DNA of 63,318 bases, the filler included, from Conidiobolus incongruus B7586 (Eukaryota), in assembly GCA_000697335.1 (NCBI GenBank). It is 8 parts of 8 records of this genome, joined end to end, with 100 filler letters (N's around TTAATTAATTAA, not from the genome) between each part and the next. Parts side by side here need not be neighbours in the genome. Positions count along the whole stretch, not along the records: positions 1 to 15,576 come from JNEM01006000.1; 7 more parts are not named here. One strand, 5' to 3'. Made by a program: the position numbers and the translations under genes. Of this stretch, positions 2,929 to 61,476 are shown piece after piece. The notes beneath the pieces are model-generated. The model was not told where the DNA came from, did not search any database, and saw only the letters and a program-made list of their open reading frames with translations. The number at the start of each line of letters is the position of its first letter. Position 1 is the stretch's first letter.

Positions 2929-3242
2929 TATTAATATAAATATATTAATGAGGACTTAATTTTATTAATAAGTACTTTTAAAATATTAATAAAAAATTAT
3001 GGGTTGATTAGATTATTAATAACCAGTTTAATTTTAATATCCCTATTTAATTCATTTAATCCTTAAAATATTCAACAAAAAAAATCAAAACATTTGTATA
3101 AATAAATTTTAAATCTAAATATATCCATTTATATTAGTACTGATTATAAATTAAATCTTGATTAAGAGATAAGATGAATTATATCTCTCATTTGAAATAA
3201 TTATTTTAAATATACAAATAATTTGTAATAATAATAGTCAAT

Positions 3243-4766
3243 ATGATAATAATCAAAAATAACATAAAATTAAATAATTTATCATCGAATTTTTTAATAA
3301 AAAATTTTAAAATAATTAAATCTATAATGACAGAAGTCCATAAAATTAAAACTGAAAATGAGAGTTTAAATTATGAAAATAATTTAGTTGAGGTATTACA
3401 AATATTTGTTAATAATATTATTTTAAGGTTAACATTTTTATATTTAAGGGAAACTTACCTGTATTGACTGATTTACATAAAAGAAATCATACTTATTTGA
3501 GAATTTCTTTAACTGAAAAGTGTAATTTACGTTGTAAGTATATATATATATCAACATTATCTAAATATTATTAATAAATATTGTTAAGGTACTTATTGTA
3601 TGCCTGAAGAAGGAGTTCCTCTAACACCTAAAGACCATCTTCTAACAACCGATGAAATTGTGCAATTGGCTAAATTATTCGTGGACCAAGGTGTTGACAA
3701 AATTAGGTTGACGGGAGGTGAACCAACTCTGAGACCTGACTTGATAGATTTAATAAGTAACATGATAATATTAAATATAATATATCTTATTCATTTTATT
3801 TATAGGTAGATTGAATGAATTAAAGCAAATTGGTTTAAAGAGTATTGGGATCACATCAAATGGCATCGCTCTAAAAAGGAAATTGGTTAAATTGAAGGAC
3901 GCTGGTTTAGATAGTTTGAATTTGAGTTTAGATACTTTAGATCCTTTTCAGTTTCAGATTATGACAAGAAGAAAAGGTATTCATTCTTTTGTATTATTAG
4001 CTGATAAAATAAAACTAATAATTTTGTAGGATTAGAAGCTGTACTAGAATGTATAAATCAATCTGTAGAAATAGGCATTCCCAATGTCAAAGTGAATACT
4101 GTAGTAATGAAAAATATAAATGATAAGGAAGTACTTGATTTTATCGAATTAACTAAAGATAAAAAATTACAAGTTCGTTTTATTGAATACATGCCATTTG
4201 ATGGTAAATATTTTTATATCATTATATTTATATTGATCCATATTAATTATTCTTTAAAGGTAATAAATGGAAGAATAACAAATTAGTTCCATATAAAGAA
4301 TTATTAAAATCCATTAAAGAAAAATATCCTAATTATTATAAATTGAAGGATGGGCCTAATGATACTACCAAAGTAATTCATTTAGCATTTTATTGATTAT
4401 ATCATATTAATGAAATTGATTAGTATTATAAAATACCCAATTACGAAGGCAATTTTGGTTTTGTTACATCCATGACGGACCACTTTTGTAATACTTGCAA
4501 CAGGTTGAGAATTACAGCTGATGGCAATCTAAAGGTAATTTAATACCAGTTATTCCTTATTAAATCATAATAACCCTTTCTTTGTATAGGTGTGTCTCTT
4601 TGGCAACGCCGAAATAAGTTTAAGAGATATGCTGAGATCCAACATCCAAGAAGAAGAAATGCTGAATTTAATTAGTATGGTAGTGAAAAGGAAGAAACCA
4701 TCTCACGGAGGTGCTGATAATATCCTCAAAATTAAAAATAGACCTATGATTTTAATCGGTGGTTAA
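3243..4766 (+). CDS. moaA: GTP 3',8-cyclase (molybdenum cofactor biosynthesis, radical SAM; MoaA/MOCS1A/Cnx2 type), 8 exons
   Basis: [19 protein letters not shown] (CX3CX2C), [46 protein letters not shown] (second Fe-S cluster) and C-terminal RPMILIGG*. Seven GT-AG introns. The basic N-terminus resembles a mitochondrial presequence. Confidence 0.95.
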
Positions 4767-5112: not shown

Positions 5113-5897
5113 ATGTCTAAAACTCAAGAAAAGCAAGAGTTAATCGATTTAACTTCCCTACCTTTGCCGGCTTTAAAACAAGTTAGATCTCAATTAGATG
5201 AAGTAATATAGAAATAATCTTTGGCTGAATAATAATTAATTTTCTTAATTATAGGAAATCAGTGTATTGAGCAATAGCTTTAACCAATTAAAGAGAGCTC
5301 AGTCTACTTTCGCAGACTGTGGTAGTTGCTTACAAAATTTGAAGACAGCTGAAGAAGGTAAATTATTTTATAATCGTAAATTTATTAACTAATATATTAA
5401 TACTTTTATAGATCAAAAAATTTTAATTCCACTAACGTCATCTATATCCTTTTTCATATAATTTGTTTTTTTTTAATTTTATTAATTTTTATACTATACT
5501 TCTTCCTTAATTCTATTCTTCTTTTACCTCTATGTTCCAGGCCAAGTTAAAGATATTGAAAAAGTTATTATTGACGTAGGTACAGGTTATTATGTTGAGA
5601 AGGTAAATATAAAATAAATTATCAATAATATTTTATTTGGTTTATTAATATTAATTAAAAAATAGAATTTAGATGAAGGCATTAAATATTTTGACGATAA
5701 AACTGAATTTATCCAAAATGGCTTGAAAGATTTAGAACAAAATATTAATGCTAAACAGAATAATATGGATGGTAATTTATTCATCATCATTTTTAAATAA
5801 TACATATATTAACTAAATTTTTATAGTGGTTTTACAAGTTATCAATATGAAAACTCAAGAAGCTCAAAATCAAGTTAAAGATGATAAATCTAAATAA
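5113..5897 (+). CDS. GIM5: Prefoldin subunit 5 (alpha type), 6 exons
   Basis: [39 protein letters not shown]..|[41 protein letters not shown].. contains the signatures PLTSSLYVPG and [11 protein letters not shown]. Confidence 0.95.
5444..5527 (+). other. U12-type (minor spliceosome) AT-AC intron in prefoldin 5
   Basis: 5' end ATATCCTT, branch site TTCCTTAAT at 5503-5511, 3' end TTTTAC. Removal restores LTSS|LYVPG. Retention gives an in-frame TAA. Confidence 0.93.
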
Positions 5898-15576: not shown

Positions 15577-15676
15577 NNNNNNNNNNNNNNNNNNNNNNNN
15601 NNNNNNNNNNNNNNNNNNNNTTAATTAATTAANNNNNNNNNNNNNNNNNNNNNNNNNNNNNNNNNNNNNNNNNNNN
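15577..15676. other. Artificial scaffold spacer; identical spacers at 21243-21342, 46122-46221, 48212-48311, 52560-52659, 55310-55409 and 61227-61326
   Basis: Each is N44 + TTAATTAATTAA (stop codons in all six frames) + N44 = 100 bp. Confidence 0.98.
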
Positions 15677-26164: not shown

Positions 26165-26236
26165 AGCTCTGCCTGAGAATCGAACTCAGATCGCAGGATT
26201 CAAAGTCCTGAGTGCTAACCATTACACCAGCGGAGC
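26165..26236 (-). tRNA. tRNA-Gln(TTG)
   Basis: GCTCCGCTGGTGTAATGGTTAGCACTCAGGACTTTGAATCCTGCGATCTGAGTTCGATTCTCAGGCAGAGCT folds as a cloverleaf with intact A/B boxes and a T4 run at the 3' end. One C5:A68 mismatch in the acceptor stem. Confidence 0.92.
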
Positions 26237-38500: not shown

Positions 38501-40253
38501 TAATAACTTATTTTAATTCTTTTAACAGTCTTTAATTAGTTTTAATATTTTTTAACAAGTAAGTTATAATATTTATTAAATATTGCTTGTTAAATCTTAA
38601 GAATATTAAAGATATATAGACAATTATTATAATATAATAAGTTATCAATGATTTTAAATCTTTTAACATATTTTAATTAGTTTTCTAATAGTTTAAAAAG
38701 TTTTTTTTAATTAAAATAAAAAAATCATCATTTGATAATGTTTTTTAAACTAATTTAATAAATTCTTTATTGCCTTCATTAATAATTATTAAGTTAATAT
38801 TTACTAGCTTTTTATAATTAGAATAAAAGGATAAATATATAAGATTTTTTAATAAAGTATCTATAATAAAATTTTATTCACTTAAAAAATATTAGATAAA
38901 AAAATTAACTTAAATAATTTTAATCTATTTAACTTATTTTCTTGATAAGTACTTTTGAGTATTTAAATAAATAAGTGATTTGTGATTTATAAGTATTAAA
39001 AAAATTATAAGATAAGAAATATAAATGATTTTTAAATATTTCTATTAAAGCAAAAAGTTTTTATTTATAAACTAGGTATTTTAATTTAGCTGGTTTTATT
39101 TTTCTTAACTAGAATATTATAAGCTTTAAGATAATATTTATAAAATTAAACTTAACTTACTCTTCTTTATTTATTATTTTATTTTAAAGTTAAAAGGTAA
39201 AATATTAATTAAATTTAAACTAAGTTAATTATTTACTAATTATAAAAAAATTAAAGTTAGTAAAAATAATAATAGGTACTTTAAAATTAAAAATATATAA
39301 AGTAAAAATATTGGTAATATAGAAAATTAAAGCATTCATGTAAAAAATATATAATAGGGTTTATTTAAAAAGAGAGTTTTTTCTTAAGAAATTAGTTAAA
39401 AAAGTTATAAATTCAACAAAAAAATTAATGAAATCTTTAAAATAATATAATAATCTAAATATAAAAATAAGTTAATTTTTTTTTATAAATATAATAAAAG
39501 CTTTTACTTTATTAAGTTTAATTAGATTAATGTTAATTCCTTAAGAAAAAACAATATAATTATAAAAATAGATAAAAAAACACTAAAAATATATTTTAAT
39601 AACTTTAAAGGTAATTTATGTTTTTGAATAATTTGTAAAATTTGATTAATATATTAAATATATTCTTTTTAGTTTTTAAATAGATTAAGATATTATTAAA
39701 ATAAGTAATAATAAAGTTATTAAAAATAAGGTTAAAAAGGGAATTAATGAATTAAATAAAAATTACAAAACATTACACAATCTAAAGTTTATAATAATAA
39801 ATTTATAATAGCTTAATATAATATTGAAAATAATTAAAATAATAGAGTTTTCTTTAACTTTAATATTATAGTAATTATTTCTAATATTTAATTTAATGAA
39901 TATAATAGATTTAAGTAGTTTATTTTTAATATTATATTGGTTTAATAATAAAGTTTTATCCTTAATAGTTTTAGAGTTTAAAACATAGTTATTAATATAT
40001 AATCTTCAACCACCATTAACCTTTTATATAAAAAGAATAAGAGATTTTTATAATCAGGAAAAAAGTTTAATATGCCTATTTTTAAATAATTTTTAAATTT
40101 CTTCTTTTAAAGTTTAATATTATTTAAAAGATAAATAGTAAATAATTTTTAAGTATAGTTAAATACTTAAATGGAGTTTAATTTTATATTTAATATTATA
40201 TTTAAAAAGTAATTTATTCACAAGTTTAAAAACATTAGTATATTAACTTACTA

Positions 40254-41826
40254 CACTAACCTACAAAAGTGAGTCATAAAATCAAAAATATATATATTTT
40301 AATTTATAACTAAAACAATTGTATATATTAGATTACTTGAAACTATAATATATAATTAAGGTATATTATTTAATAATAGATAAATATATTTAGATATATT
40401 TAGTAAGCTATTAGCAAAAATATTAACCCTTAATATTTAACCAAGATGAGTTATAAATTTGCAGGTTTTTGAGATAAAGGGATATATATAACAATATATA
40501 ACTATATCTTTTTTCTCTTTTTGCTATTATTTTATATAATATTTTACAGATATACTAAATTCTTTTTATTAGTATTATTATACCTAAATCCCTCTCTAAA
40601 AAAATCTACTTGCACATTAATCAACTTTATAAAGAAAGTAAATCAACTTGTGATATTGCTAGAATTACTAGTGTTAGCTAGTCTACTATAGCTAAGGTTG
40701 TTAAGAATAGCAATGAAGAAACATTTAAACCTAAACTTAAATGTGCTAAAATCATAGATGAACATGATGAGAAGTATATCTATAGGTTAGTTAGTACAAA
40801 CAAATATAGTACTACTGTAGAAATATAGCAAGAATTACAAGACTATACAAGAATATTAGTTAGCACTGATACTATTATATGTGCTTTACATTAGCATAGA
40901 TACCACTTACACTTTAAAAAAAAACACCCCCAACTAAAGAAATCCCACTATAAAGCTAGGTAGGAGTTTAAATGTCACCACTAATGTTGAACTGAAACTA
41001 ATTAGAGTAAGGTTATTTAGTCTGATAAAACAAAAATATACCTTAGTAAATCTGATAAAAAAGTTAGATGCTTTAGAAAAGATACAGAACTACTTTATGA
41101 CCATTATGTTAATTTTACCCAAAAGTATAGTGGTGGGTTAATTATTGTTTGGGGATATATGTTGTCTTTAAGTATAAGGTATCTTTGTAAAGTTAATAAG
41201 GGAATTAATGTTGAGATGTACTAAAATATTGTGAACAATGAATTGAAAAAAACCATTGAATGGTATAGGTTAAACAAATCTAATGTTATTTTCTAGCAAG
41301 ATAATACTTCTTGCTATACTACAGCTTTTACTACTAAATAGCTTAAAAATAACAAGATAACAGTTATGAAGTGGCCTCTTTAATCTCCTAACTTTAATCT
41401 AATTAAACACCTTTAGGATTAGTTAAAAAAAGCTATTAAAGCTTTCCCCCTAGTAAAAAATTTAGATCAACTTTGGGAATATGTTCAAGAAGTATAGAAC
41501 AAGATTAACCCTTCTTAGTATAAGAAGTTAGTTGATTCTATACCCCACAAACTTAAAGAAGTTAGAAAAGCTAAAGGTAGATACACTAGGTTTTAATTTT
41601 TTTTTATCACCAAAAACCTACAAATTTATAACTCACCTTAGGTAAAATTTAAGGGTTTATATTTTAACTAATTAATAGCTAAATATCATCATTTAATGAT
41701 ATATATAACTAATAAATATAATAGATTTTAATTATTTAATTTAGGTTTATTTCATTAAATATTAATCAAGTTATTAGTAAAAATATAAGTGTTTTTGATT
41801 TTATGACTCACTTTTGCAGGTTAGTG
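40254..41826 (+). mobile_element. Tc1-family (DD34E) IR-DR transposon, copy 1, least degraded
   Basis: TA-flanked; 35-bp outer TIR CACTAACCT[A/G]CAAAAGTGAGTCATAAAATCAAAAA; inner repeats ~170-215 bp in. Colinear transposase ~40579-41596: KSTCDIARITSVS*ST (HTH), VI*SDKTK (WSDE), F*QDNT, WPL*SPNFNLIKHL* (WPxQSPDxNPIEHLW), AKGRYTRF*. Confidence 0.93.
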
Positions 41827-43428
41827 TATATTATATAAAAAGTAGTTATTAGTTATAACTTCATTAAAATTAATAAATAAAATATTAATAAATAAATAAT
41901 AAATAAATATATATATCTTTATAGATTATGAAAATTTTTAATTAGTTTTTTATATTAATTTTTGTTTATAATAATAGTATTATTTAACACAATTATAGAA
42001 TTAATATTAGGTAAAATATTTAATAATTTTATAATAGGGTAATATAAATGTTTTAAGATTAATTCTACTAATTTCTTTTAAATTATAAAAAAAAATAAAT
42101 TTATAACTTTTTAAAGTAATATTCATAAATAAAAAACTATGGTATTTAAACTAATTTTAACCTAGTATAAAATTATAACTAATATTACCAACTAAGAATT
42201 TAATATATTAAGAGTAGCTAAGAAATAGTAATAAATATTTAAATATAATATTAAATATTTATTTTATTAAATTATTAACATATTTAATTATTAAGCAGCT
42301 TTTTTAAATAGGTAAAAATAGTTTTATAATAATAAAAAAAGAAATAATATAATTAAAACAACTAAAGTTAATTAAAACATAAACAAGTATATCTATAAAA
42401 TATTTAGTTAAAAAAAACAATAAAGTGATAATTAAAAGTAAAAAATTATAAGGTAAATTAGTTACTAGAATATTTTTAATTTCTAATAATTTAATTAATT
42501 AGATCTCTTTAATATATATAGTTTAATTTTTGGAATTATTAGTTTATTAGAACTTTTGTGTATTAGATTAAAATCTATTAATGAATTATAAAAGAAGTAA
42601 TTTTAAAGTTATATTAATATTATTCAGGTTTAATTTATAATTAGTAGATTAAGATTATTAAAAATTAAACAGATATTGTTTTTTAAAAGGATATTTATCA
42701 TCTTTATAATTAATTTAAATTATTTAGAAATAATAATAACTTTTATTGACTTTTAAATAAGTTTTAGCTTTTTCATTAAAAGTTTTCTTATAGAGCTTTA
42801 AAACAGAAATATATATTATTTGAGATTTAAGTAACTAAAAGTAAATTTTAAAAGATTAATTTTTAAGATAAAAAATTTAATTATAAAATAAAAGATATCA
42901 TCAATTATTATTACTATATTACAAATATTAAAAAAAATATAATATTAAAATATTCCCAATTAATTAACTAAAGTTTTATTTGAAGATTAAAGTATTATAA
43001 TCACTTATAGATTTTTTTTAGTGATATTTAATATGTTTAAATATATCTCATTAAATTTCTTAAATAATTACCTTATAGAAGTTTTTTATTGAATTTAAAA
43101 AAGCTTTTATTTTGTTAATTAAACTTAATTTTTTAAATAAAATTTCTTTTTAAAAGCTTTTTCTAATTATTTAATGGTTTATATTTTTATAGTAGGTTAT
43201 CCCCTTAAAAACTCTTTATAATTAAGTTCATAATAAATTAACTACTAAATATAAGTTATTTTTTTTCAAATAAAATAACTAATTTAAAGATATTCTTTAA
43301 ATCTTTATTAAAAATTAAATTAAAATAATTTTTTATAATTTTAAAATAATATTCAAGATTGTAGAGGTTTTTAAAACTATTATAAATAGTTAATTTATTT
43401 TTAAAAATATTAAAAAGATAGTTTAATA

Positions 43429-44997
43429 TACTAACCTAGAAAAATAAGTCATAAAATCAAAAACACTTATATTTTTACTAATAACTTAATTAATATTTAA
43501 TGAAATAAACTTTAATTTAATAATTAAAATCAATTATATTTATTAATTATATATATCATTAAATAATAATATTTAGCTATTAATTGGTTAAAATATAAAC
43601 CTTTAAATTTTACCTAAGGTAAGTTATAAATTTATAAGTTTTTGGTAATTAAAAAAATTAAAACTTAATATATTTATCTTTAACTTTTCTAACTTCTTTA
43701 GGTTTATAAGGTATAGAATCAATTAACTTTTTATATTAAAAAGGGTTAATTTTATTTTATGTTTCTTAAATATATTTTTAAAGTTGATTTAAATTTTTTA
43801 CTAGAGGGAAAACTTTAATAGCTTTTTTTAACTAATCTAAAAAGTGTTTAATTAGATCAAAGTTAAAAAATTAAAAAAGCTATTTTATAACTATTATCTT
43901 GTTATTTTTAAGTTATTTGGTAGTAAAGACTATAGTATAAGAAAAAGTATTATCTTATTAAAAAATAACATTAGATTTGTTTAACCTATATTATTTAATA
44001 GTTTTTTCAATTTATTATTCAAAATATTTTAGTACATTTTAATATTAATTCCCTTATTAACTTTATAAAGATACTTTACACCTAAAAACAACATATATCT
44101 TTAAATAATAATTAACTTATAATTGTACTTTTAAGTAAAATTAACATAATAATTATAAAGTAGTTCTATATCTTTTCTGAAGCATTTAGCTTTTTTATTA
44201 GATTTACTAAGATATATTTTTATTTTATTAAACTAAATAACTTTATTCTAATTAGTTTTAGTTTAATATTAATAGTAATATTTAAACTCCCACTTAATTT
44301 TATAATGGGATTTTTTTAATTAAGGGTGTTTTTTCTTAAAATATAAGTGATATCTATGTTAATATAAAGTATATATAATAATATTAGTGTTAAATAATAT
44401 TCTTATATAGTTTTATAGTTTTTGTTATATTTCTACAATAATACTACACTTACTTATATTAACTAACCTATAAATATACTTCTTATTATATTTATCTATA
44501 ATCTTAATATTATTAAGTTTAAGTTTAAATTTTTTTTATTATTATTCTGAATAGCTTTAATTATAATAAACTAACTAACACTAGTAATTCTAATAATATT
44601 ATAAGTTAATTTATCTTTTTTATAAGGTTAATTAATATATAAATAGATTTTTTTAGAGAGGGATTTAGGTATAATAATACTAATAAAAAAATTTATTATA
44701 TCTGTAAAATATTATATAAAATAATAACAAAGAGAGAAAAAAGATATAGCTATATATTATTAAATATATCCCCTTATCTCAAAAACCTACAAATTTATAA
44801 CTCACCTTAGTAAAATATTAAAGGTTAATATTTTTGCTAATATTTTACTAAATATATCTAAATATATTTATTTATTATTAAAATATATACTTCAATTATA
44901 TATTATAGTTTTAAATAATCTAATATATATAGCTATTTTAGTTATTAATTAAAATATATATATTTTTGATTTTATAACTTACTTTTATAGGTTAGTA
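43429..44997 (-). mobile_element. Tc1-family transposon, copy 2 (inverted, more mutated)
   Basis: Full-length reverse-complement match to copy 1; TA-flanked; TIRs degraded by transitions. Confidence 0.9.
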
Positions 44998-46221
44998 TAT
45001 ATTAACTATAATAAAATAACTAGTTTATTAGATTTAAGCTTTTTAAGTTATATTCTTCTTAACTAAAAGTTATTTAATATAGATTTCTTAAAGGGTAATA
45101 AGCTTTTAAAGACTAAAGTTTTAAATTCACTTAGTAATTAAATTACTATCATTATTAAAATAATATGAGGCTATTTTTGTGATAGTATTATAGTATATAA
45201 TATTAAATTTAAATAAAATAAATTATAGATAAGCTTCAAAATAATAATAAATATATTTGATATAAATAATTATTAATTTCTAATAGGTTTTAATTGTTTT
45301 ATTATTGTTATTATATAAGTATAGTATTAAATACTAATATAATATAAAAGAAAACTTAATATGAGAGTAATGTGATATAAAATATAATACTATAATATAG
45401 TTATAGTGTATAAATATAAACAAAGTTTAATTAAGCTTTAAACTAGGATAAGTTACTAATATATTAAGATTTATATTAGATATTGCTAATATACTATAAT
45501 ATTAATAGGATATAGTTTTAATTTTAAAAATAATAAAAAAAAATAAGAAATAATAAGAGTTAAAAGAAAAAAACCTAGTATATTAGATAATTTAATGCTA
45601 TTTATATAATTAAATTAGCTATAAAAGTATAAATTAATTATATACTTTATAGTTAATTAAATTATATAAAAATATATATTGGAATTTAAAGAATTAGTCT
45701 CTTAACATAATATATTCCCAAATTTATAATAATATTTTTTAATTAAAACTTATTGAAATACAATACTAAATAATATATTTTAAAATATTTTTAAGGTTTT
45801 TATTTTCCCATAAAATTTTAAATTTCTTTTTTTTACTTAAATATTTCAATACCAAGATTATTAGCTTGTTTATAGTTTATTTTTTTTATTATTTATATTA
45901 AATATTATAGATTCAAGCTATAAAATATTTTTATATAGATATTTATATTTTTTTAAATTTAAAAAATATAATTTCTGAAGATAAAATAAATTGGGATAAT
46001 ATTTCTCAAATCAGCTTTTATTAGGGAATAATATTATAATTCTGTATTATTATAATTCATAATAATAAATTATATTTCTTGTGATTATTCTTATATTAAT
46101 ATTTATTTTATATCTTTATTANNNNNNNNNNNNNNNNNNNNNNNNNNNNNNNNNNNNNNNNNNNNTTAATTAATTAANNNNNNNNNNNNNNNNNNNNNNN
46201 NNNNNNNNNNNNNNNNNNNNN

Positions 46222-48211
46222 TTTTTAAAATTATTTAAAACTTAAAAACAGCTTATAAAATTGATATTTATCTAAAATTACTATATATTGCTAAATTTGT
46301 GATTTTAAAGTTAGAAAAAATATTACTTAAAATATATTATAGTTTAAAAAATTAATTTTAAATATTATTTATTATTTATTATTAAAATAAAAAAATATAT
46401 TGACAAATATCTATTTATTTTAATTAAAGAATTATTAAGATATTTTAATATTAATTATAAACTAACTTATAAAAGTAAGTTATAAAATCAAATATATATA
46501 TATTTTAATTAATAACTAAAACAATTGTATATATTAATTTATTTGAAATTATAATATATAATTAAAGAATATTATTTGATTATAAATAAATATATTTAGA
46601 TATATTTAGTAAACTATTAACAAAAATATTAACCCTTAATATTTAACTAAGGTAAGTTATAAATTTGTAGGTTTTTAAGATAAAAGGATATATTTAACAA
46701 TATATAACTATATCTTTTTTCTCTCTTTGTTATTATTTTATATAATATTATATACATATATTAAATTTTTTTTATTAGTATTATTATACTTAAATCCCTT
46801 TTTAAAAAAATTTACTTGTGTATTAATTAACTTTATAAAAAAGATAAATCAACTTATAATATTGTTAGAATTACTAGTGTTAACTAGTTTACTATAGTTA
46901 AAGCTGTTAAAAATAACAATAAAAACAGATATAAACTTAAACTTAAATATGTTCAGATTATAGATAAATATAATAAGAAGTATATTTGTAAGTTAGTTAA
47001 TATAAGTAAATATAGTACTGTTATAGAAATATAACAAGAACTATAAGATTATGTAAGAATATTAGTTAGTATTAATACTATTATATGTGTTTTATATTAG
47101 TATAGATACTATTTACACTTTAAGAAAAAACACCACTAATTAAAGAAATCCTACTATAAAGCTAAGTAAAAGTTTAAATGTTGCTACTAATATTAAACTA
47201 AAATTAATTAGAATAAAGTTATTTAGTTTGATGAAATAAAAATATACTTTAGTAAATCTAATAAAAAAACTAGATATTTCAGAAAAGATACAAAACTACT
47301 TTATAACCATTATGTTAATTTTACCTAAAAGTACAATAATAGATTAATTATTGTTTAGGGATATATGTTATCTTTAGTTGTAAGGTATCTTTATAAAGTT
47401 AATAAGGGAATTAATACTAAAATATACTAAAGTATTCTAAATAATAAATTAAAAAAACTATTAAATAATATAGGTTAAACAAATCTAATATTATTTTCCA
47501 GTAAAATAATACCTCTTGTTATACTCTAGCTTCTATTACCAAATAGCTTAAAAATAACAAGATAACAGTTATAAAGTGGTTTCTTTAATCTTTTAACTTT
47601 AACTTAATTAAATACCTTTGGAATTAGTTAAAAAAAGCTATTAAAGCTTTCCCTTAGCTAAAGATTTAAATCAACTTTAAAAATATATTTAAGAATTATA
47701 AAACAAGATTAACCTTTCTTAATATAAGAAGTTAATTAATTTTATATCTTATAAACTTAAAGAAGTTAGAAAAGCTAAAGGTAGATACATTAGGTTTTAA
47801 TTTTTTTATCACTAAAAACCTATAAATTTATAACTCACCTTAGGTAAAATTTAAGTATTTATATTTTAACCAATTAATAACTAAATATCATCATATAATG
47901 ATATATAATATTAATAAATATAATACATTTTAATTATTTAATTTAAGTTTATTTCATTAAATATTAGTTAAGTTATTAGTAAAAATATAAATGTTTTTGG
48001 TTTTATGATTTATTTTTATAGATTAGTATATAAACATATTATATATATTTAAGTTTAAACTTAATTTAATTAATAAAAATATAAAATAAACACCTTATAA
48101 TTCAACAAATATTTAAAAAAAATTAGAATAGTGACAGTTAAACTAAACTTATCAAAATATAACCAAAACCAAAGGTTTTTATATTAAATATCTATAATTA
48201 ATGAATTTTAA
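46222..48211 (+). mobile_element. Internal part of a mariner copy (46222-46459 and 48029-48211) interrupted by Tc1 copy 3
   Basis: The two flanks match ~15980-16220 and ~16220-16400 of the mariner and join at a duplicated TA. Confidence 0.75.
46460..48028 (+). mobile_element. Tc1-family transposon, copy 3
   Basis: Full-length match to copy 1; TA-flanked; heavily transition-mutated. Confidence 0.9.
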
Positions 48212-48311: not shown

Positions 48312-51300
48312 AGAACAAAATTTGTCACCAGATTACTAGAAAGATTGGGTGTGAGTGTCCATTTCAAAGAACCTGTCTTATTAGTTGGTGAAACTGGTAC
48401 TGGTAAAACAACCGTCGTTCAACATCTCGCCAAACTCCTTAATACCAATTTAATTGCTGTAAATCTGTCTCAACAAACGGACTCCTCAGAATTGCTTGGA
48501 GGTTTCAAACCAATCGATTCAAACGCTTTAGGCAAAATGCTCTATGCCAACTTTACAGATTTGCTCTATAAAACATTCCCTCAACAGGGTAATGAAATTT
48601 TGAATATGGCTCACAGTATTGTCAACAAGAAGCAATGGTTGAAATTAGCCAAATTAATTAAGAAAACTATTACCAAAGTCGAACAAACTTTTGCCGTTCA
48701 ATCCCCCACCAAAAAGCCCAAGACAAATGGAACAGATCGTATGGAACTCTTGTCAGATTGGCTGAAACTGTCAACACAGGTTCAAGATCTCGAAAATCAA
48801 TTAGCCAAATCAGATAAAGCTTTAGTATTTCAATTTATTAAAGGTACACTCACCAAAGCCATCGAAAATGGAGATTGGTTATTGCTCGACGAAATTAATT
48901 TGGCTACTACAGAAACTTTGGAATGTTTGAGTGGTCTTTTACAAGATTCTAACGGCTCTATCCTACTATCCGAAAAGGGCGATACCGAGCCAATTCGTAG
49001 ACATCCCAACTTTAGAGTGTTCGCTTGTATGAATCCCTCGACCGATGTTGGTAAGAAGGATTTACCTCCAGGGTTTAGAAACAGATTTACAGAGTTTTAT
49101 GTACCTTCTCCTGATACTAATCAAGAAGATTTAATTGCTATTATTGAGCTCTATATTTCAAAGCTGGCTCATGGCGACAACTCTGCCGTGATGGATGTAG
49201 TTGAATTCTATCAAAAATCTAAGCATCTTCAGATTTCTAGATCGATTGCTGATGGTGCCAATCAAGCTCCTCATTTTAGTATTCGTACACTTACTCGTGC
49301 ATTAAATTATGTCAGTCGCGTCACTTCCATTTTTGGACTTCGCCGTGCTTTGTTCGAAGGGTTGTCGATGTCATTCACTACTCAACTCATTCCAAAGAGT
49401 CAAAAAGCCATGAAAGATCTCCTATTCTCCACAGTTTTGAGAGTATATGACAATCCTCAACAAATACTAAGTCTGAATCCTAAACCTCTATCACTTGAGC
49501 AGAGAGACAAATACGTCCAATTCGGCTCCTATATCTTACCCAAAGGACCTTTGGAAATCAATCCCGCAGACACTGCAAAATATATTCAAACTGCATCTGT
49601 CAAGATCAATTTGCACAATTTGGCACGTGTTGTGATGGATGGAAGAGCTCCCGTTCTCATTCAAGGTCCCACCTCTGCCGGTAAAACAAGTATGATCGAG
49701 TATTTGGCTAAGAAGACCGGTCATAAATTCGTTCGTATCAACAATCATGAACACACTGATCTCCAAGAGTATATTGGATCTTACATTTCAAAAGACGGTA
49801 AACTGATCTTCCAAGAAGGTGCCTTAGTCGACGCCTTACGCAACGGCCACTGGATCGTACTTGACGAATTAAATTTAGCGCCTTCTGATGTTCTCGAAGC
49901 TCTCAATCGTTTATTGGACGACAATCGCGAATTATTAATTGCCGAAACGCAACAAATCGTCAAACCTCACCCTCACTTCATGCTATTTGCCACCCAAAAT
50001 CCAGCCGGGCTGTACGGAGGTCGTAAAACTCTGTCCCGAGCATTTCGCAATCGTTTCTTAGAGCTTCACTTTGACGAATTACCTGAAGACGAATTGGAAA
50101 TTATTTTGACGAATCGATGCAGTATCCCTCCCTCCCACTGTAAATTATTGGTCGAAACCTATACCACTCTTTTCAGAATTCGTAAAACTACCCGAATTTT
50201 CGACGGTAAACATTCTTTTATCACCCTTAGAGATTTGTTCAGATGGGCGAATCGTCACGCACAGGATAAACACGAATTAGCTAGGAATGGGTACATGATC
50301 TTAGCGGAACGTGTACGCAAACCCGAGGAAAAGCAAGCAATTTTGGAGGTTTTGGAAAAGGTCATGAAGACCAAGATTGATATTAATTTGATGTATAATG
50401 AATCACCTCAAATTCATGAAGCTTTCGACAAGTTGAAGAAATTGAACAAGTTTAATTCTATTGCTTGGACTAATGCCACAAAGAGACTGTACTCCCTCGT
50501 TTACGAATGTCTAAAGCATAAGGAACCCGTATTGTTGGTTGGTGAAACGGGATGTGGTAAAACAACAGTATGTCAAATCCTTTCCACAATTCTGGAGCAA
50601 GATTTAACCATTCTTAATTGTCACCAAAATACCGAATCTTCCGATATTTTGGGTAGTCAACGTCCCAACCGCAATCGCGTGTTAACATCCCAAGCTAGAC
50701 AATCGATCATTGATGTTATGCGACTAGCTTATCCTGAATCCTCCCAAGAAGATTGGATAAATTTGGACCCCAGTTCCCTCGCCGACAACTTTTTGAAATT
50801 AGCTCAAATTCCCTCCAACTCTAATCCACTTTCGCCACACGTTGCGAATGGCACTATATCTGTCCAATTACTTGAAGATTTGAAAGCTCAGTGCCAAAGC
50901 TTTTCCGAACTCTTCACATGGCACGACGGCCCTCTCATCCAGTCTATGAAGCAGGGTGGTCTGTTCCTCCTTGATGAAATTTCCCTCGCTGAAGATTCCG
51001 TCCTAGAACGTTTGAACAGTGTTTTGGAACCTGAAAGAACTTTGTTCTTAGCTGAAAAGAGCTCAGAAACCAATGAATCTTTGACTGCTGTGGAAGCTTT
51101 CCGATTCTTAGCTACCATGAATCCTGGTGGTGACTATGGTAAAAAAGAACTATCTCCTGCTTTGAGGAATCGTTTCACCGAAATTTGGGTCCCTATGGTT
51201 GAAGAGCGCTCGGATTTGGAGATTATAATTCGCAAGCAGTTGGATCGTTTAAGTGATTCCGATGCCGTCGAATACTCCAACCGCATCTTGGACTTTATCG

Positions 51301-52559
51301 AATGGTTCGGTAAAGATATCGTTAAATCCGAATCCAAACAATTATTCAGTATTCGTGACATTTTGTCATGGGCTAACTTTATCAATCTCAACTATTCCGA
51401 TAGAGCCGATCTTCACTCTCTCTTCGTCCACGGTGGTTGTGTAGTATTTTTAGATGGGTTGGGTTCCAACTCCTCCATGGTCAGTTTGTCAATGACGGGT
51501 CAACATCAAATTTACGAATTACGCAAGAAGTGCTTAGAAAAATTAGGCAATAATCAAATTCCCAGCGATGATTTGAAACGCGATTTCTATCGCTTTGCAA
51601 TGGATGAATCTGATGACGATGTGCAGTACGCCCAGAGTTTGGTTTACGATTCTCAATCCGAATTTGGTATTGGTCCCTTCCGAATTCCCAAGAATAATCA
51701 TGCTCCCAGCAAGAATTTCTTTTCGATCGACGCTCCTACCACCTTCGACAACGTTCGCAGAGTGTTGAGAGGCTTGCGTATCGGTAAATCTATTATGCTC
51801 GAAGGCAGCCCGGGTGTGGGTAAGACCAGTTTGATCCAAGCTTTGGCGGACATGTCCGGCAACAAGTTGGTTAGAATTAATCTCTCAGAACAGACCGATC
51901 TCATCGATCTCTTCGGTACTGACTTACCCGTAGAAGGCGGCAAAGGCGGTGAATTCTGCTGGCGAGATGCACCATTTTTGCAAGCTATGCAGAATGGCTG
52001 GTGGGTATTATTAGATGAAATTAACTTGGCGTCCCAATCCGTCCTCGAAGGTCTGAACTCATGCTTAGATCATCGTGGCACCGTCTACCTCCCCGAACTC
52101 GACAAGGAATTCACGAAAGCGCCCGGTTTCCTCATGTTTGCAGCCCAGAATCCATTGCAGCAGGGTGGCGGTCGCAAAGGTTTGCCCAAATCCTTCATCA
52201 ATAGATTTACTCAAGTGTACATCGAACCACTCTTGACTAAAGATTTGCAAATTATTTGTAAGAGATCTTTTCCACAAATCGAATCTTCGTTGGTTGATAA
52301 GATTTTACAATTCAACAGTCAGTTGCACCACTTGACCATGGTCGAAAACAAATTCGGTAAGTTAGGTCAGCCTTGGGAATTCAATTTGAGAGATGTGTTC
52401 AGACTTCTCACATTACTCACTAAGGATGTGTTATGTGATAGGAATTCCCAATTACCACTGAGACCTGAATACTATTTGGATGTGATTTATTTGCAAAGAA
52501 TGAGAAGTTTGGAAGATCGCCAAGCTCTTCTGGATCTGTATTTCAGTATTTTCGGCAAG
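48312..52559 (+). CDS. MDN1: Midasin (Rea1) AAA+ ATPase, internal fragment, contig 1
   Basis: Tandem AAA modules GETGTGKT, GPTSAGKT, GETGCGKT and GSPGVGKT, each with an LLDE-type Walker B and an NRF-type motif. Open at both gaps. Confidence 0.96.
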
Positions 52560-52659: not shown

Positions 52660-55309
52660 CTTGCCGAAAATACTGAAATACAGATCCAGAAGAGCTTGGC
52701 GATCTTCCAAACTTCTCATTCTTTGCAAATAAATCACATCCAAATAGTATTCAGGTCTCAGTGGTAATTGGGAATTCCTATCACATAACACATCCTTAGT
52801 GAGTAATGTGAGAAGTCTGAACACATCTCTCAAATTGAATTCCCAAGGCTGACCTAACTTACCGAATTTGTTTTCGACCATGGTCAAGTGGTGCAACTGA
52901 CTGTTGAATTGTAAAATCTTATCAACCAACGAAGATTCGATTTGTGGAAAAGATCTCTTACAAATAATTTGCAAATCTTTAGTCAAGAGTGGTTCGATGT
53001 ACACTTGAGTAAATCTATTGATGAAGGATTTGGGCAAACCTTTGCGACCGCCACCCTGCTGCAATGGATTCTGGGCTGCAAACATGAGGAAACCGGGCGC
53101 TTTCGTGAATTCCTTGTCGAGTTCGGGGAGGTAGACGGTGCCACGATGATCTAAGCATGAGTTCAGACCTTCGAGGACGGATTGGGACGCCAAGTTAATT
53201 TCATCTAATAATACCCACCAGCCATTCTGCATAGCTTGCAAAAATGGTGCATCTCGCCAGCAGAATTCACCGCCTTTGCCGCCTTCTACGGGTAAGTCAG
53301 TACCGAAGAGATCGATGAGATCGGTCTGTTCTGAGAGATTAATTCTAACCAACTTGTTGCCGGACATGTCCGCCAAAGCTTGGATCAAACTGGTCTTACC
53401 CACACCCGGGCTGCCTTCGAGCATAATAGATTTACCGATACGCAAGCCTCTCAACACTCTGCGAACGTTGTCGAAGGTGGTAGGAGCGTCGATCGAAAAG
53501 AAATTCTTGCTGGGAGCATGATTATTCTTGGGAATTCGGAAGGGACCAATACCAAATTCGGATTGAGAATCGTAAACCAAACTCTGGGCGTACTGCACAT
53601 CGTCATCAGATTCATCCATTGCAAAGCGATAGAAATCGCGTTTCAAATCATCGCTGGGAATTTGATTATTGCCTAATTTTTCTAAGCACTTCTTGCGTAA
53701 TTCGTAAATTTGATGTTGACCCGTCATTGACAAACTGACCATGGAGGAGTTGGAACCCAACCCATCTAAAAATACTACACAACCACCGTGGACGAAGAGA
53801 GAGTGAAGATCGGCTCTATCGGAATAGTTGAGATTGATAAAGTTAGCCCATGACAAAATGTCACGAATACTGAATAATTGTTTGGATTCGGATTTAACGA
53901 TATCTTTACCGAACCATTCGATAAAGTCCAAGATGCGGTTGGAGTATTCGACGGCATCGGAATCACTTAAACGATCCAACTGCTTGCGAATTATAATCTC
54001 CAAATCCGAGCGCTCTTCAACCATAGGGACCCAAATTTCGGTGAAACGATTCCTCAAAGCAGGAGATAGTTCTTTTTTACCATAGTCACCACCAGGATTC
54101 ATGGTAGCTAAGAATCGGAAAGCTTCCACAGCAGTCAAAGATTCATTGGTTTCTGAGCTCTTTTCAGCTAAGAACAAAGTTCTTTCAGGTTCCAAAACAC
54201 TGTTCAAACGTTCTAGGACGGAATCTTCAGCTAGGGAAATTTCATCAAGGAGGAACAGACCACCCTGCTTCATAGACTGGATGAGAGGGCCGTCGTGCCA
54301 TGTGAAGAGTTCGGAAAAGCTTTGGCACTGAGCTTTCAAATCTTCAAGTAATTGGACAGATATAGTGCCATTCGCAACGTGTGGCGAAAGTGGATTAGAG
54401 TTGGAGGGAATTTGAGCTAATTTCAAAAAGTTGTCGGCGAGGGAACTGGGGTCCAAATTTATCCAATCTTCTTGGGAGGATTCAGGATAAGCTAGTCGCA
54501 TAACATCAATGATCGATTGTCTAGCTTGGGATGTTAACACGCGATTGCGGTTGGGACGTTGACTACCCAAAATATCGGAAGATTCGGTATTTTGGTGACA
54601 ATTAAGAATGGTTAAATCTTGCTCCAGAATTGTGGAAAGGATTTGACATACTGTTGTTTTACCACATCCCGTTTCACCAACCAACAATACGGGTTCCTTA
54701 TGCTTTAGACATTCGTAAACCAGGGAGTACAGTCTCTTTGTGGCATTAGTCCAAGCAATAGAATTAAACTTGTTCAATTTCTTCAACTTGTCGAAAGCTT
54801 CATGAATTTGAGGTGATTCATTATACATCAAATTAATATCAATCTTGGTCTTCATGACCTTTTCCAAAACCTCCAAAATCGCTTGCTTTTCCTCGGGCTT
54901 GCGCACACGTTCCGCTAAGATCATATACCCATTCCTAGCTAATTCGTGTTTATCCTGTGCGTGACGATTCGCCCATCTGAATAAATCTCTAAGGGTGATA
55001 AAAGAATGTTTACCGTCGAAAATTCGGGTAGTTTTACGAATTCTGAAAAGAGTGGTATAGGTTTCGACTAATAATTTACAGTGGGAGGGAGGGATACTGC
55101 ATCGATTCGTCAAAATAATTTCCAATTCGTCTTCAGGTAATTCGTCAAAGTGAAGCTCTAAGAAACGATTGCGAAATGCTCGGGACAGAGTTTTACGACC
55201 TCCGTACAGCCCGGCTGGATTTTGGGTGGCAAATAGCATGAAGTGAGGGTGAGGTTTGACGATTTGTTGCGTTTCGGCAATTAATAATTCGCGATTGTCA
55301 TCCAATAAA
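52660..55309 (-). CDS. MDN1: Midasin internal fragment, contig 2 (redundant with contig 1)
   Basis: Reverse complement of ~49910-52559 with identical protein and a few synonymous differences. Confidence 0.9.
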
Positions 55310-58400: not shown

Positions 58401-61226
58401 ACCCAACAGCTCCATAGCGTCGACACCGGAATTCATAGAGAATTCGACCAACTTGTTTTGTGTTACAGATGCGAGCCACTTGACGACGCTGGACTTGCCG
58501 CATGCTTGGGGACCGATTAAAATGGACATCCATCCCATTTCCACACATTTCATCATGCTTTCAATCACTTGAAGTTGGGATTGTAACAGGAGACATGGTG
58601 AGGGTTGTAACGAGATAGCGACTTGAGACGATTTGGATAGTATGGATTTACCAATTCGAATCAAATCATGGTTCAATGAGTAAGTAATGGGAGGTTGAAT
58701 GAGATTTTCGTATTGCTTGCCGAAAATACTGAAATACAGATCCAGAAGAGCTTGGCGATCTTCCAAACTTCTCATTCTTTGCAAATAAATCACATCCAAA
58801 TAGTATTCAGGTCTCAGTGGTAATTGGGAATTCCTATCACATAACACATCCTTAGTGAGTAATGTGAGAAGTCTGAACACATCTCTCAAATTGAATTCCC
58901 AAGGCTGACCTAACTTACCGAATTTGTTTTCGACCATGGTCAAGTGGTGCAACTGACTGTTGAATTGTAAAATCTTATCAACCAACGAAGATTCGATTTG
59001 TGGAAAAGATCTCTTACAAATAATTTGCAAATCTTTAGTCAAGAGTGGTTCGATGTACACTTGAGTAAATCTATTGATGAAGGATTTGGGCAAACCTTTG
59101 CGACCGCCACCCTGCTGCAATGGATTCTGGGCTGCAAACATGAGGAAACCGGGCGCTTTCGTGAATTCCTTGTCGAGTTCGGGGAGGTAGACGGTGCCAC
59201 GATGATCTAAGCATGAGTTCAGACCTTCGAGGACGGATTGGGACGCCAAGTTAATTTCATCTAATAATACCCACCAGCCATTCTGCATAGCTTGCAAAAA
59301 TGGTGCATCTCGCCAGCAGAATTCACCGCCTTTGCCGCCTTCTACGGGTAAGTCAGTACCGAAGAGATCGATGAGATCGGTCTGTTCTGAGAGATTAATT
59401 CTAACCAACTTGTTGCCGGACATGTCCGCCAAAGCTTGGATCAAACTGGTCTTACCCACACCCGGGCTGCCTTCGAGCATAATAGATTTACCGATACGCA
59501 AGCCTCTCAACACTCTGCGAACGTTGTCGAAGGTGGTAGGAGCGTCGATCGAAAAGAAATTCTTGCTGGGAGCATGATTATTCTTGGGAATTCGGAAGGG
59601 ACCAATACCAAATTCGGATTGAGAATCGTAAACCAAACTCTGGGCGTACTGCACATCGTCATCAGATTCATCCATTGCAAAGCGATAGAAATCGCGTTTC
59701 AAATCATCGCTGGGAATTTGATTATTGCCTAATTTTTCTAAGCACTTCTTGCGTAATTCGTAAATTTGATGTTGACCCGTCATTGACAAACTGACCATGG
59801 AGGAGTTGGAACCCAACCCATCTAAAAATACTACACAACCACCGTGGACGAAGAGAGAGTGAAGATCGGCTCTATCGGAATAGTTGAGATTGATAAAGTT
59901 AGCCCATGACAAAATGTCACGAATACTGAATAATTGTTTGGATTCGGATTTAACGATATCTTTACCGAACCATTCGATAAAGTCCAAGATGCGGTTGGAG
60001 TATTCGACGGCATCGGAATCACTTAAACGATCCAACTGCTTGCGAATTATAATCTCCAAATCCGAGCGCTCTTCAACCATAGGGACCCAAATTTCGGTGA
60101 AACGATTCCTCAAAGCAGGAGATAGTTCTTTTTTACCATAGTCACCACCAGGATTCATGGTAGCTAAGAATCGGAAAGCTTCCACAGCAGTCAAAGATTC
60201 ATTGGTTTCTGAGCTCTTTTCAGCTAAGAACAAAGTTCTTTCAGGTTCCAAAACACTGTTCAAACGTTCTAGGACGGAATCTTCAGCTAGGGAAATTTCA
60301 TCAAGGAGGAACAGACCACCCTGCTTCATAGACTGGATGAGAGGGCCGTCGTGCCATGTGAAGAGTTCGGAAAAGCTTTGGCACTGAGCTTTCAAATCTT
60401 CAAGTAATTGGACAGATATAGTGCCATTCGCAACGTGTGGCGAAAGTGGATTAGAGTTGGAGGGAATTTGAGCTAATTTCAAAAAGTTGTCGGCGAGGGA
60501 ACTGGGGTCCAAATTTATCCAATCTTCTTGGGAGGATTCAGGATAAGCTAGTCGCATAACATCAATGATCGATTGTCTAGCTTGGGATGTTAACACGCGA
60601 TTGCGGTTGGGACGTTGACTACCCAAAATATCGGAAGATTCGGTATTTTGGTGACAATTAAGAATGGTTAAATCTTGCTCCAGAATTGTGGAAAGGATTT
60701 GACATACTGTTGTTTTACCACATCCCGTTTCACCAACCAACAATACGGGTTCCTTATGCTTTAGACATTCGTAAACGAGGGAGTACAGTCTCTTTGTGGC
60801 ATTAGTCCAAGCAATAGAATTAAACTTGTTCAATTTCTTCAACTTGTCGAAAGCTTCATGAATTTGAGGTGATTCATTATACATCAAATTAATATCAATC
60901 TTGGTCTTCATGACCTTTTCCAAAACCTCCAAAATTGCTTGCTTTTCCTCGGGTTTGCGTACACGTTCCGCTAAGATCATGTACCCATTCCTAGCTAATT
61001 CGTGTTTATCCTGTGCGTGACGATTCGCCCATCTGAACAAATCTCTAAGGGTGATAAAAGAATGTTTACCGTCGAAAATTCGGGTAGTTTTACGAATTCT
61101 GAAAAGAGTGGTATAGGTTTCGACCAATAATTTACAGTGGGAGGGAGGGATACTGCATCGATTCGTCAAAATAATTTCCAATTCGTCTTCAGGTAATTCG
61201 TCAAAGTGAAGCTCTAAGAAACGATT
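55410..61226 (-). CDS. MDN1: Midasin internal fragment, contig 3 (extends through the sixth AAA module into the linker)
   Basis: Overlaps contigs 1 and 2, then continues with GPQACGKS, LLIDNANLC and RPMRNRGIE followed by a helical linker. Confidence 0.95.
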
Positions 61227-61403: not shown

Positions 61404-61476
61404 GGGGAATTAGCTCAAATGGTAGAGCGCTCGCTTAGCATGCGAGAGGCACGGGGATCGATACCCCGATTCTCCA
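61404..61476 (+). tRNA. tRNA-Ala(AGC)
   Basis: GGGGAATTAGCTCAAATGGTAGAGCGCTCGCTTAGCATGCGAGAGGCACGGGGATCGATACCCCGATTCTCCA has G3:U70, anticodon AGC, the eukaryotic Ala ATCGA T-loop and a downstream T4. Confidence 0.96.

Follow-up and report, generated by a model that had tools for sequence, protein, structure and literature searches.

The closest described counterpart of the intron analyzed here lies in the human gene for prefoldin subunit 5 (PFDN5). Its minor intron spans chr12:53,296,276-53,297,849 and is assigned to the U12 GT_AG subtype in Table S8 of PMC11039992. It is likewise listed in PMC8034651 and its datasets, and Table S7 of PMC10853781 gives its donor as CT/GTATCCTTT (the slash marks the exon-intron boundary), subtype GT_AG. 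According to the available part of the latter paper, a major-type donor in human PFDN5, AG/GTGGGG, can use the acceptor of the minor intron.

Among fungi, the accessible text of Larue and Roy 2023 (PMC10639083) reports no convincing minor introns in Ascomycota and Basidiomycota and their retention in early-diverging fungi, with 249 in Basidiobolus meristosporus and 205 in Rhizophagus irregularis. This agrees with the statement in the original prediction for this locus that minor splicing was lost in Dikarya and kept in some early-diverging fungi. AT-AC introns are described from Rhizopus oryzae as well as Phycomyces blakesleeanus in excerpts of PMC2846911, and minor snRNAs are described, in the portions available, from Lichtheimia/mucoromycetes (PMC4133162) and from zoopagomycete and mucoromycete fungi (bioRxiv 2022.10.12.511939, PMC4133162). 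Conidiobolus is itself an early-diverging fungus, belonging to the Entomophthorales. The U12-type introns of non-Dikarya fungi are of the same class as the intron described below and come from the same grade of organisms, and Basidiobolus is a near relative of the Entomophthorales.

Orthologous minor introns are known to differ in their end dinucleotides. Switches between AT-AC and GT-AG at a single position are attributed to Burge 1998 in the passages seen of PMC2831892 and PMC3584512, and U12DB is said in the former to hold 36 orthologous minor-intron clusters with differing terminal dinucleotides. The PFDN5 case resembles these switches but would differ in dividing fungi from animals. AT...AC ends are also shared by U2-type introns, including those of sodium-channel genes, which carry a G at position +5 (PMC2831892, in part); the Conidiobolus intron has a U12-type donor and a U12-type branch motif instead.

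The gene at positions 5113 to 5897 of the window (the whole 63-kb stretch of DNA that was analyzed) is prefoldin subunit 5 (PFDN5/GIM5, alpha type), and its features are collected in Table 1. The spliced product comprises 158 amino acids, and 137 of 156 positions are the same in the Conidiobolus coronatus prefoldin alpha subunit KXN74140.1; all six exons are intact and in frame. Together with the match of a NagA gene (see below), this places the DNA in a Conidiobolus closely related to, yet distinct from, the C. coronatus strain whose genome was sequenced. Exon 4 matches the Pfam Prefoldin family (PF02996, E 3.7e-7), and its top matches among solved structures are the human PFDN5 chains 6nr8_5 and 7wu7_5 (E 6e-8). 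The junction between PLTSS and LYVPG, created by removal of intron 3, is unbroken in 120/120 of the best homologues, a set biased towards good models. The same motif is unbroken in human PFDN5, where the junction is Ser69-Met70, and the C. coronatus model KXN74140.1 has the correctly spliced junction. The upstream neighbor, at 3222-4766 (+), has several exons and is a gene for molybdenum-cofactor synthesis of the MoaA/CNX2 type (Radical SAM, Mob_synth_C); it ends ~350 nt before the prefoldin start.

TABLE 1 Exons, introns and predicted intron 3 splice signals of the PFDN5 gene, in window coordinates
Feature	Position	Strand	Evidence or remark
Exon 1, coding part, 90 nt from ATG	5113..5202	+	Alignment with C. 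coronatus KXN74140.1
Intron 1, GT-AG major type, 52 nt, phase 0	5203..5254	+	Gene model
Exon 2, 103 nt	5255..5357	+	Gene model, homology
Intron 2, GT-AG major type, 54 nt, phase 1	5358..5411	+	Gene model
Exon 3, 32 nt, last codons PLTSS	5412..5443	+	Gene model, homology
Intron 3, predicted U12-type AT-AC, 84 nt, phase 0	5444..5527	+	Gene model, motifs, homology
Predicted U12-type 5' splice site ATATCCTTT	5444..5452	+	C, not G, at +5; C also at +6
Predicted U12-type branch-site motif TTCCTTAAT	5503..5511	+	8/9 positions as in TTCCTTAAC; branch A predicted at 5509 or 5510
Predicted AC 3' splice site	5526..5527	+	First AC 3' of branch motif
Exon 4, 75 nt, LYVPG...GYYVEK	5528..5602	+	Pfam and human PFDN5 matches
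Intron 4, GT-AG major type, 63 nt, phase 0	5603..5665	+	Gene model
Exon 5, 106 nt	5666..5771	+	Pfam/homology
Intron 5, GT-AG major type, 55 nt, phase 1	5772..5826	+	Gene model
Exon 6, 71 nt including stop codon	5827..5897	+	Homology

An 84-nt AT-AC intron between PLTSS and LYVPG had been proposed at 5444-5527, and the present gene model reproduces its coordinates, donor and AC end. The intron is the third of five in the gene and lies in phase 0; its first letters are ATATCCTTTT and its last letters are TTTTAC. The donor ATATCCTTT fits RTATCCTTT through +9 and is placed at the homology-defined exon end, and the branch motif TTCCTTAAT fits the consensus UCCUUAAC at all but the final base (T instead of C); both consensus sequences are those given in the available text of PMC2846911. 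A TCCTTAAC-like branch, the criterion used for U12-type introns, is present in TTCCTTAAT. From the end of the branch motif to the end of the intron there are 16 nt, slightly more than the optimum of 11-13 nt stated in the accessible part of PMC3584512. A distinct polypyrimidine tract is not expected of U12-type introns; here pyrimidines account for 14 of the last 16 nt, and the intron as a whole is 85% A+T. Phase 0 is less common among minor introns (~22%, in the portion of PMC10639083 available). When an 84-nt excision was tried in 11 registers, canonical ends (AT...AC) appeared in the register of Table 1 only, and shifts of 1 to 5 nt either way produced no GT-AG, GC-AG or other AT-AC pair. 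Folding of the intron revealed no structure.

Retention of intron 3 brings in-frame TAA codons at 5459, 5474 and 5483, and the protein then ends after 80 amino acids. The premature stop foreseen in the original prediction is present, although there are three in-frame stops and not one. The earlier description of the splice signals as canonical stands for the donor and the AC end and has to be softened for the remainder, given the terminal T of the branch motif, the 16-nt spacing and the pyrimidine-rich 3' end. The G at +5 expected of a U2-type AT-AC intron is replaced by C. On the sequence evidence as a whole, intron 3 is very probably a U12-type AT-AC intron.

Taken singly, the motifs are not enriched in the AT-rich window: the donor motif has 6 matches (3.6 expected) and the branch motif 12 (13.8 expected). 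The composite of donor, branch and AC was observed once; over 200 dinucleotide shuffles made block by block its count averaged 0.03, and 5 of the 200 reached 1. For the 8-nt donor to fall exactly at the homology-defined exon end, the chance is ~2e-5. Sites other than 5444 were judged from a list of 35 [AG]TATCC[TC] sites in the window. The two best of these were both rejected as minor donors: site 2493, which is the reverse of an exon boundary of a phosphoglycerate-mutase-like gene, and minus-strand site 36526, which has no open frame around it. The latter begins a 55-nt stretch, 36526-36472 (-), whose donor ATATCCTTTT is fully U12-type, which contains the branch-like TTCCTTACC and which ends in AC; no open frame and no Pfam match were found around it, and no second copy was found in the window. 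This stretch is probably a chance match, and it may otherwise be a non-coding or UTR intron. Because it is an AT..AC stretch outside any gene, U12-like motifs can arise by chance in DNA of this window.

The existence of U2-type AT-AC introns, the pyrimidine run ahead of the AC and the pronounced minor-intron loss reconstructed for the Zoopagomycota ancestor (PMC10639083, in the text available) could be taken to mean that intron 3, though a genuine AT-AC intron, is handled by the major (U2) spliceosome: it would then be of the U2 type, or a relic in a lineage that has lost its minor machinery. We regard this as very unlikely. The donor has C at both +5 and +6 and follows the U12 consensus through +9, where the U2-type introns have G at +5. 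The other four PFDN5 introns differ from it in pattern: all of them start with GTAA, and 3/4 have TAAC/CTAAT/TTAAT-type sites 15-27 nt from an AG. In addition, a full U12 donor and branch within an intron of such A+T content are what would be expected under selection by U11/U12. There is also only a slim chance that the Conidiobolus lineage lost or strongly remodelled U11/U12/U4atac/U6atac and that the intron is a relic now removed by a hybrid or major spliceosome; the reconstructed loss in the ancestor of the group speaks for this reading, but it is opposed because the donor and branch signals are intact.

Allowing only GT/GC-AG introns gave 69 models open to the normal stop, the longest of which encodes 149 amino acids, and neither PLTSS nor YVPG is kept in any of the 69. 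A GT-AG-only predictor would join the intron 2 donor (5358) to the AG at 5540, with the loss of 15 conserved residues. Only the excision of 5444-5527 as intron 3 restores the conserved PFDN5 protein. Because no such model keeps PLTSS or YVPG, predictors confined to canonical sites would mis-annotate PFDN5. The original prediction had said as much, and the faulty models of two chytrids (see below) bear it out; the correct model of the closest relative, C. coronatus (KXN74140.1), does not. Such open models, together with the U2 bypass form of human PFDN5 (PMC10853781, in part), might suggest that the fungal gene is in fact spliced at canonical sites, for example from 5358 or 5376 to AG 5540, yielding a protein without PLTSSLYVP and making the AT-AC pattern a coincidence. 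This is exceedingly unlikely, as all 69 models lose PLTSS and YVPG, which are contiguous in every one of the 120 homologues. Moreover, compared with C. coronatus, conservation in exon 3 and at the beginning of exon 4 is level with that of the rest of the protein, which would not be expected of intronic DNA.

The minor intron of animal PFDN5 that the original prediction mentioned does exist, and at the same codon boundary; its GT-AG subtype had not been anticipated. We infer the position of the human intron, at the Ser69 boundary, from the CT at the end of the exon, because an exon ending in CT fits Ser69, and from read-through models of snakes (see below). The human and Conidiobolus introns would accordingly share the gene, the inferred boundary PLTSS/[ML]YVPG, phase 0, the RTATCCTTT donor and the CT exon end. 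They differ in that the human intron is GT-AG and ~1.57 kb long, whereas the Conidiobolus intron is AT-AC and 84 nt long.

A metagenome scan was run with the pattern [IV]PLTxS followed by RTATCCTT, in which a U12 donor was required and either AT or GT was allowed. It returned at least 115 loci. Among the 115 listed, 11 are PFDN5 genes, in 7 sequence groups, and the other 104 were dropped as chance matches that are not PFDN5. The donor after PLT[SGC]S is GTATCCTT (GT) in 11/11 of the listed PFDN5 loci, a count that, like those that follow, shows presence and not frequency, since the pattern itself demanded a U12 donor. In the five loci for which the next exon was fetched, the introns are 91-1433 nt long and AG-terminated. 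Each has a sequence resembling a branch site at a distance of 10-14 nt from the intron end (5/5) and, as in the window, a GT 75 nt after the minor acceptor (5/5). An AG 135 nt upstream of the minor donor, corresponding to the position of intron 1, is found in 9 of the 11 listed PFDN5 loci. Animals have a GT-AG minor intron at the codon boundary of intron 3. As to plants, PFDN5 is absent from the human-Arabidopsis alignment file of PMC2426677.

Protein models that read through the intron reveal its donor as a short peptide, in that a GTATCCTT donor is translated as VS[FL] and a ATATCCTT donor as IS[FL]. Conceptual read-through of the window's own intron 3 gives 14 protein letters (not shown). 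When 50%-identity representatives were searched with a read-through fragment ending in VSF, there were 84 hits, a set biased to the GT form. After the motif, these continue with VS[FL] (n = 52), IS[FL] (n = 2), another V-start (n = 6), the spliced sequence (n = 21), something else (n = 2) or unrelated sequence (n = 1), and the counts show presence and not frequency, given that the query ended in VSF. Organism names were drawn from the 5 named among 20 representatives looked up.

The named VS[FL] read-through models come from the snakes Thamnophis and Vipera and the beetle Dendroctonus; those of the snakes have a nearly human PFDN5 sequence and read through directly after residue 69. The named IS[FL] models belong to two chytrids: KAJ3091934.1 is from Quaeritorhiza haematococci and XJO74301.1 from Batrachochytrium dendrobatidis. 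A second Batrachochytrium model, EGF82251.1, in the same cluster as XJO74301.1, shows the IS[FL] read-through too. All three chytrid models (...PLTxS-ISF) are missing LYVPG. As read from these peptides, the chytrid donor is likely of the AT type ATATCCTT, and a minor intron would explain the faulty public PFDN5 models of the two chytrids. Read-through peptides of this kind give the subtype of a minor intron from protein databases alone. The snake, beetle and chytrid read-through models (P0309, P0318, P0330, P0256, P0263 and P0258) are all without LYVPG. The six V-start peptides other than VS[FL] (P0279, P0307, P0312, P0324, P0325 and P0329) may reflect conversion of the intron to the major type in some lineages.

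Although the window consists of draft pieces with N spacers and contains triplicated sequence elsewhere, there is next to no likelihood that an assembly or sequencing error made AT-AC out of a GT-AG intron, or that this is a pseudogene. Such a change would take two independent errors, one at each intron end, the remaining donor TATCCTTT is of U12 type whichever base comes first, the chytrid models point to the same AT start, and the exons are all intact and in frame.

In minor splicing, U11 binds the donor and U12 pairs with the branch site with a bulged A, followed by the action of U4atac/U6atac and U5. The pathway is established (PMC3584512, in the sections available). Applied to intron 3 as a minor intron, the U11 snRNP would read the donor ATATCCTTT, U12 would pair with TTCCTTAAT while bulging A5509 or A5510, and U6atac/U4atac with U5 would complete the catalytic centre. 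The first AC downstream, at 5526-5527, would then serve as the 3' site. Unspliced RNA would reach a stop after 80 codons, with two further introns still downstream, and would be a likely target for degradation. These signals suggest, as the original prediction proposed, that Conidiobolus incongruus may have a functional minor spliceosome. No minor snRNAs were found within the 63-kb window, where Rfam (gathering and E <=1) gave two tRNAs only.

We hold it to be highly probable that intron 3 is an AT-AC intron with U12 signals, likely removed by the minor spliceosome and likely derived from the common ancestor of fungi and animals. The intron is likely older than the fungus-animal split, and its AT-AC form is likely old within the fungi (chytrids and Entomophthorales). 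It would have been retained with AT-AC ends in the chytrids and the Entomophthorales, and with GT-AG ends in the animals. With AT-AC likely common to fungi as distant from each other as these two, against GT-AG in animals, one subtype switch would account for the distribution, and such a switch likely separates fungi from animals at PFDN5 intron 3. The direction AT-AC to GT-AG, on the animal side, would be the more likely one because it follows the trend in the literature (PMC2831892 and PMC3584512, as far as available).

The end dinucleotides may also have consequences for how the gene is spliced. The human PFDN5 acceptor is a dual-type site that a major donor also uses; with an AC end this would not be possible. 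According to the accessible text of PMC3584512, the mixed combinations AT-AG and GT-AC are disfavoured, so that a major bypass of the human type (exon-1 donor, same acceptor) would be closed in the fungus. With its AC end, fungal PFDN5 would thus depend strictly on minor splicing.

Subtype switches have been published, as have minor introns of early-diverging fungi, and the finding is in that respect unsurprising to a specialist. Its interest is that a human minor intron, that of PFDN5, which is mis-spliced in RNU4ATAC and RNU12 disease data, would be extended to early-diverging fungi. The locus would be a clean and readily checked example of fungi and animals differing by a switch of subtype, AT-AC versus GT-AG, the human major bypass possibly being absent from the fungus, and intron 3 could serve as a marker of minor splicing in Entomophthorales.

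C. coronatus, Entomophthora muscae and Entomophaga maimaiga are included in Fig. S1 of PMC10639083, and the orthologous intron of C. coronatus may already be catalogued in that 2023 survey. We found no text on minor introns of Conidiobolus or Entomophthorales in the literature passages available, and no paper on a fungal PFDN5 minor intron. In the available portion of the 2025 C. coronatus genome paper (PMC12387763), spliceosomes are not mentioned. The supplements obtained for PMC11039992 and PMC9887622 hold no Conidiobolus rows, and the passages seen of PMC8280824, PMC9887622, PMC7367187 and PMC2426677 contain nothing on Conidiobolus.

The window is composed of eight pieces separated by seven 100-nt N spacers (the first at 15577-15676), with a 12-nt all-frame stop linker. 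Because it consists of eight joined pieces, gene order across the spacers is not reliable. A midasin (MDN1-like) fragment occurs three times, on separate pieces (49910-52559, 52660-55309 and 58716-61226), at 99.7-100% identity; these copies reflect redundancy of the assembly and do not form a gene family. A dispersed, AT-rich repeat ~1.6 kb long, with ~85% identity between its three copies, lies at 40240-41892, 43424-45014 and 46448-48090 and had no Pfam match in the frames tested. The two tRNA genes are located at 26165-26236 (-) and 61404-61476 (+). Finally, a NagA gene carried by another piece matches C. coronatus KXN73418.1 with 268 identical positions out of 283.
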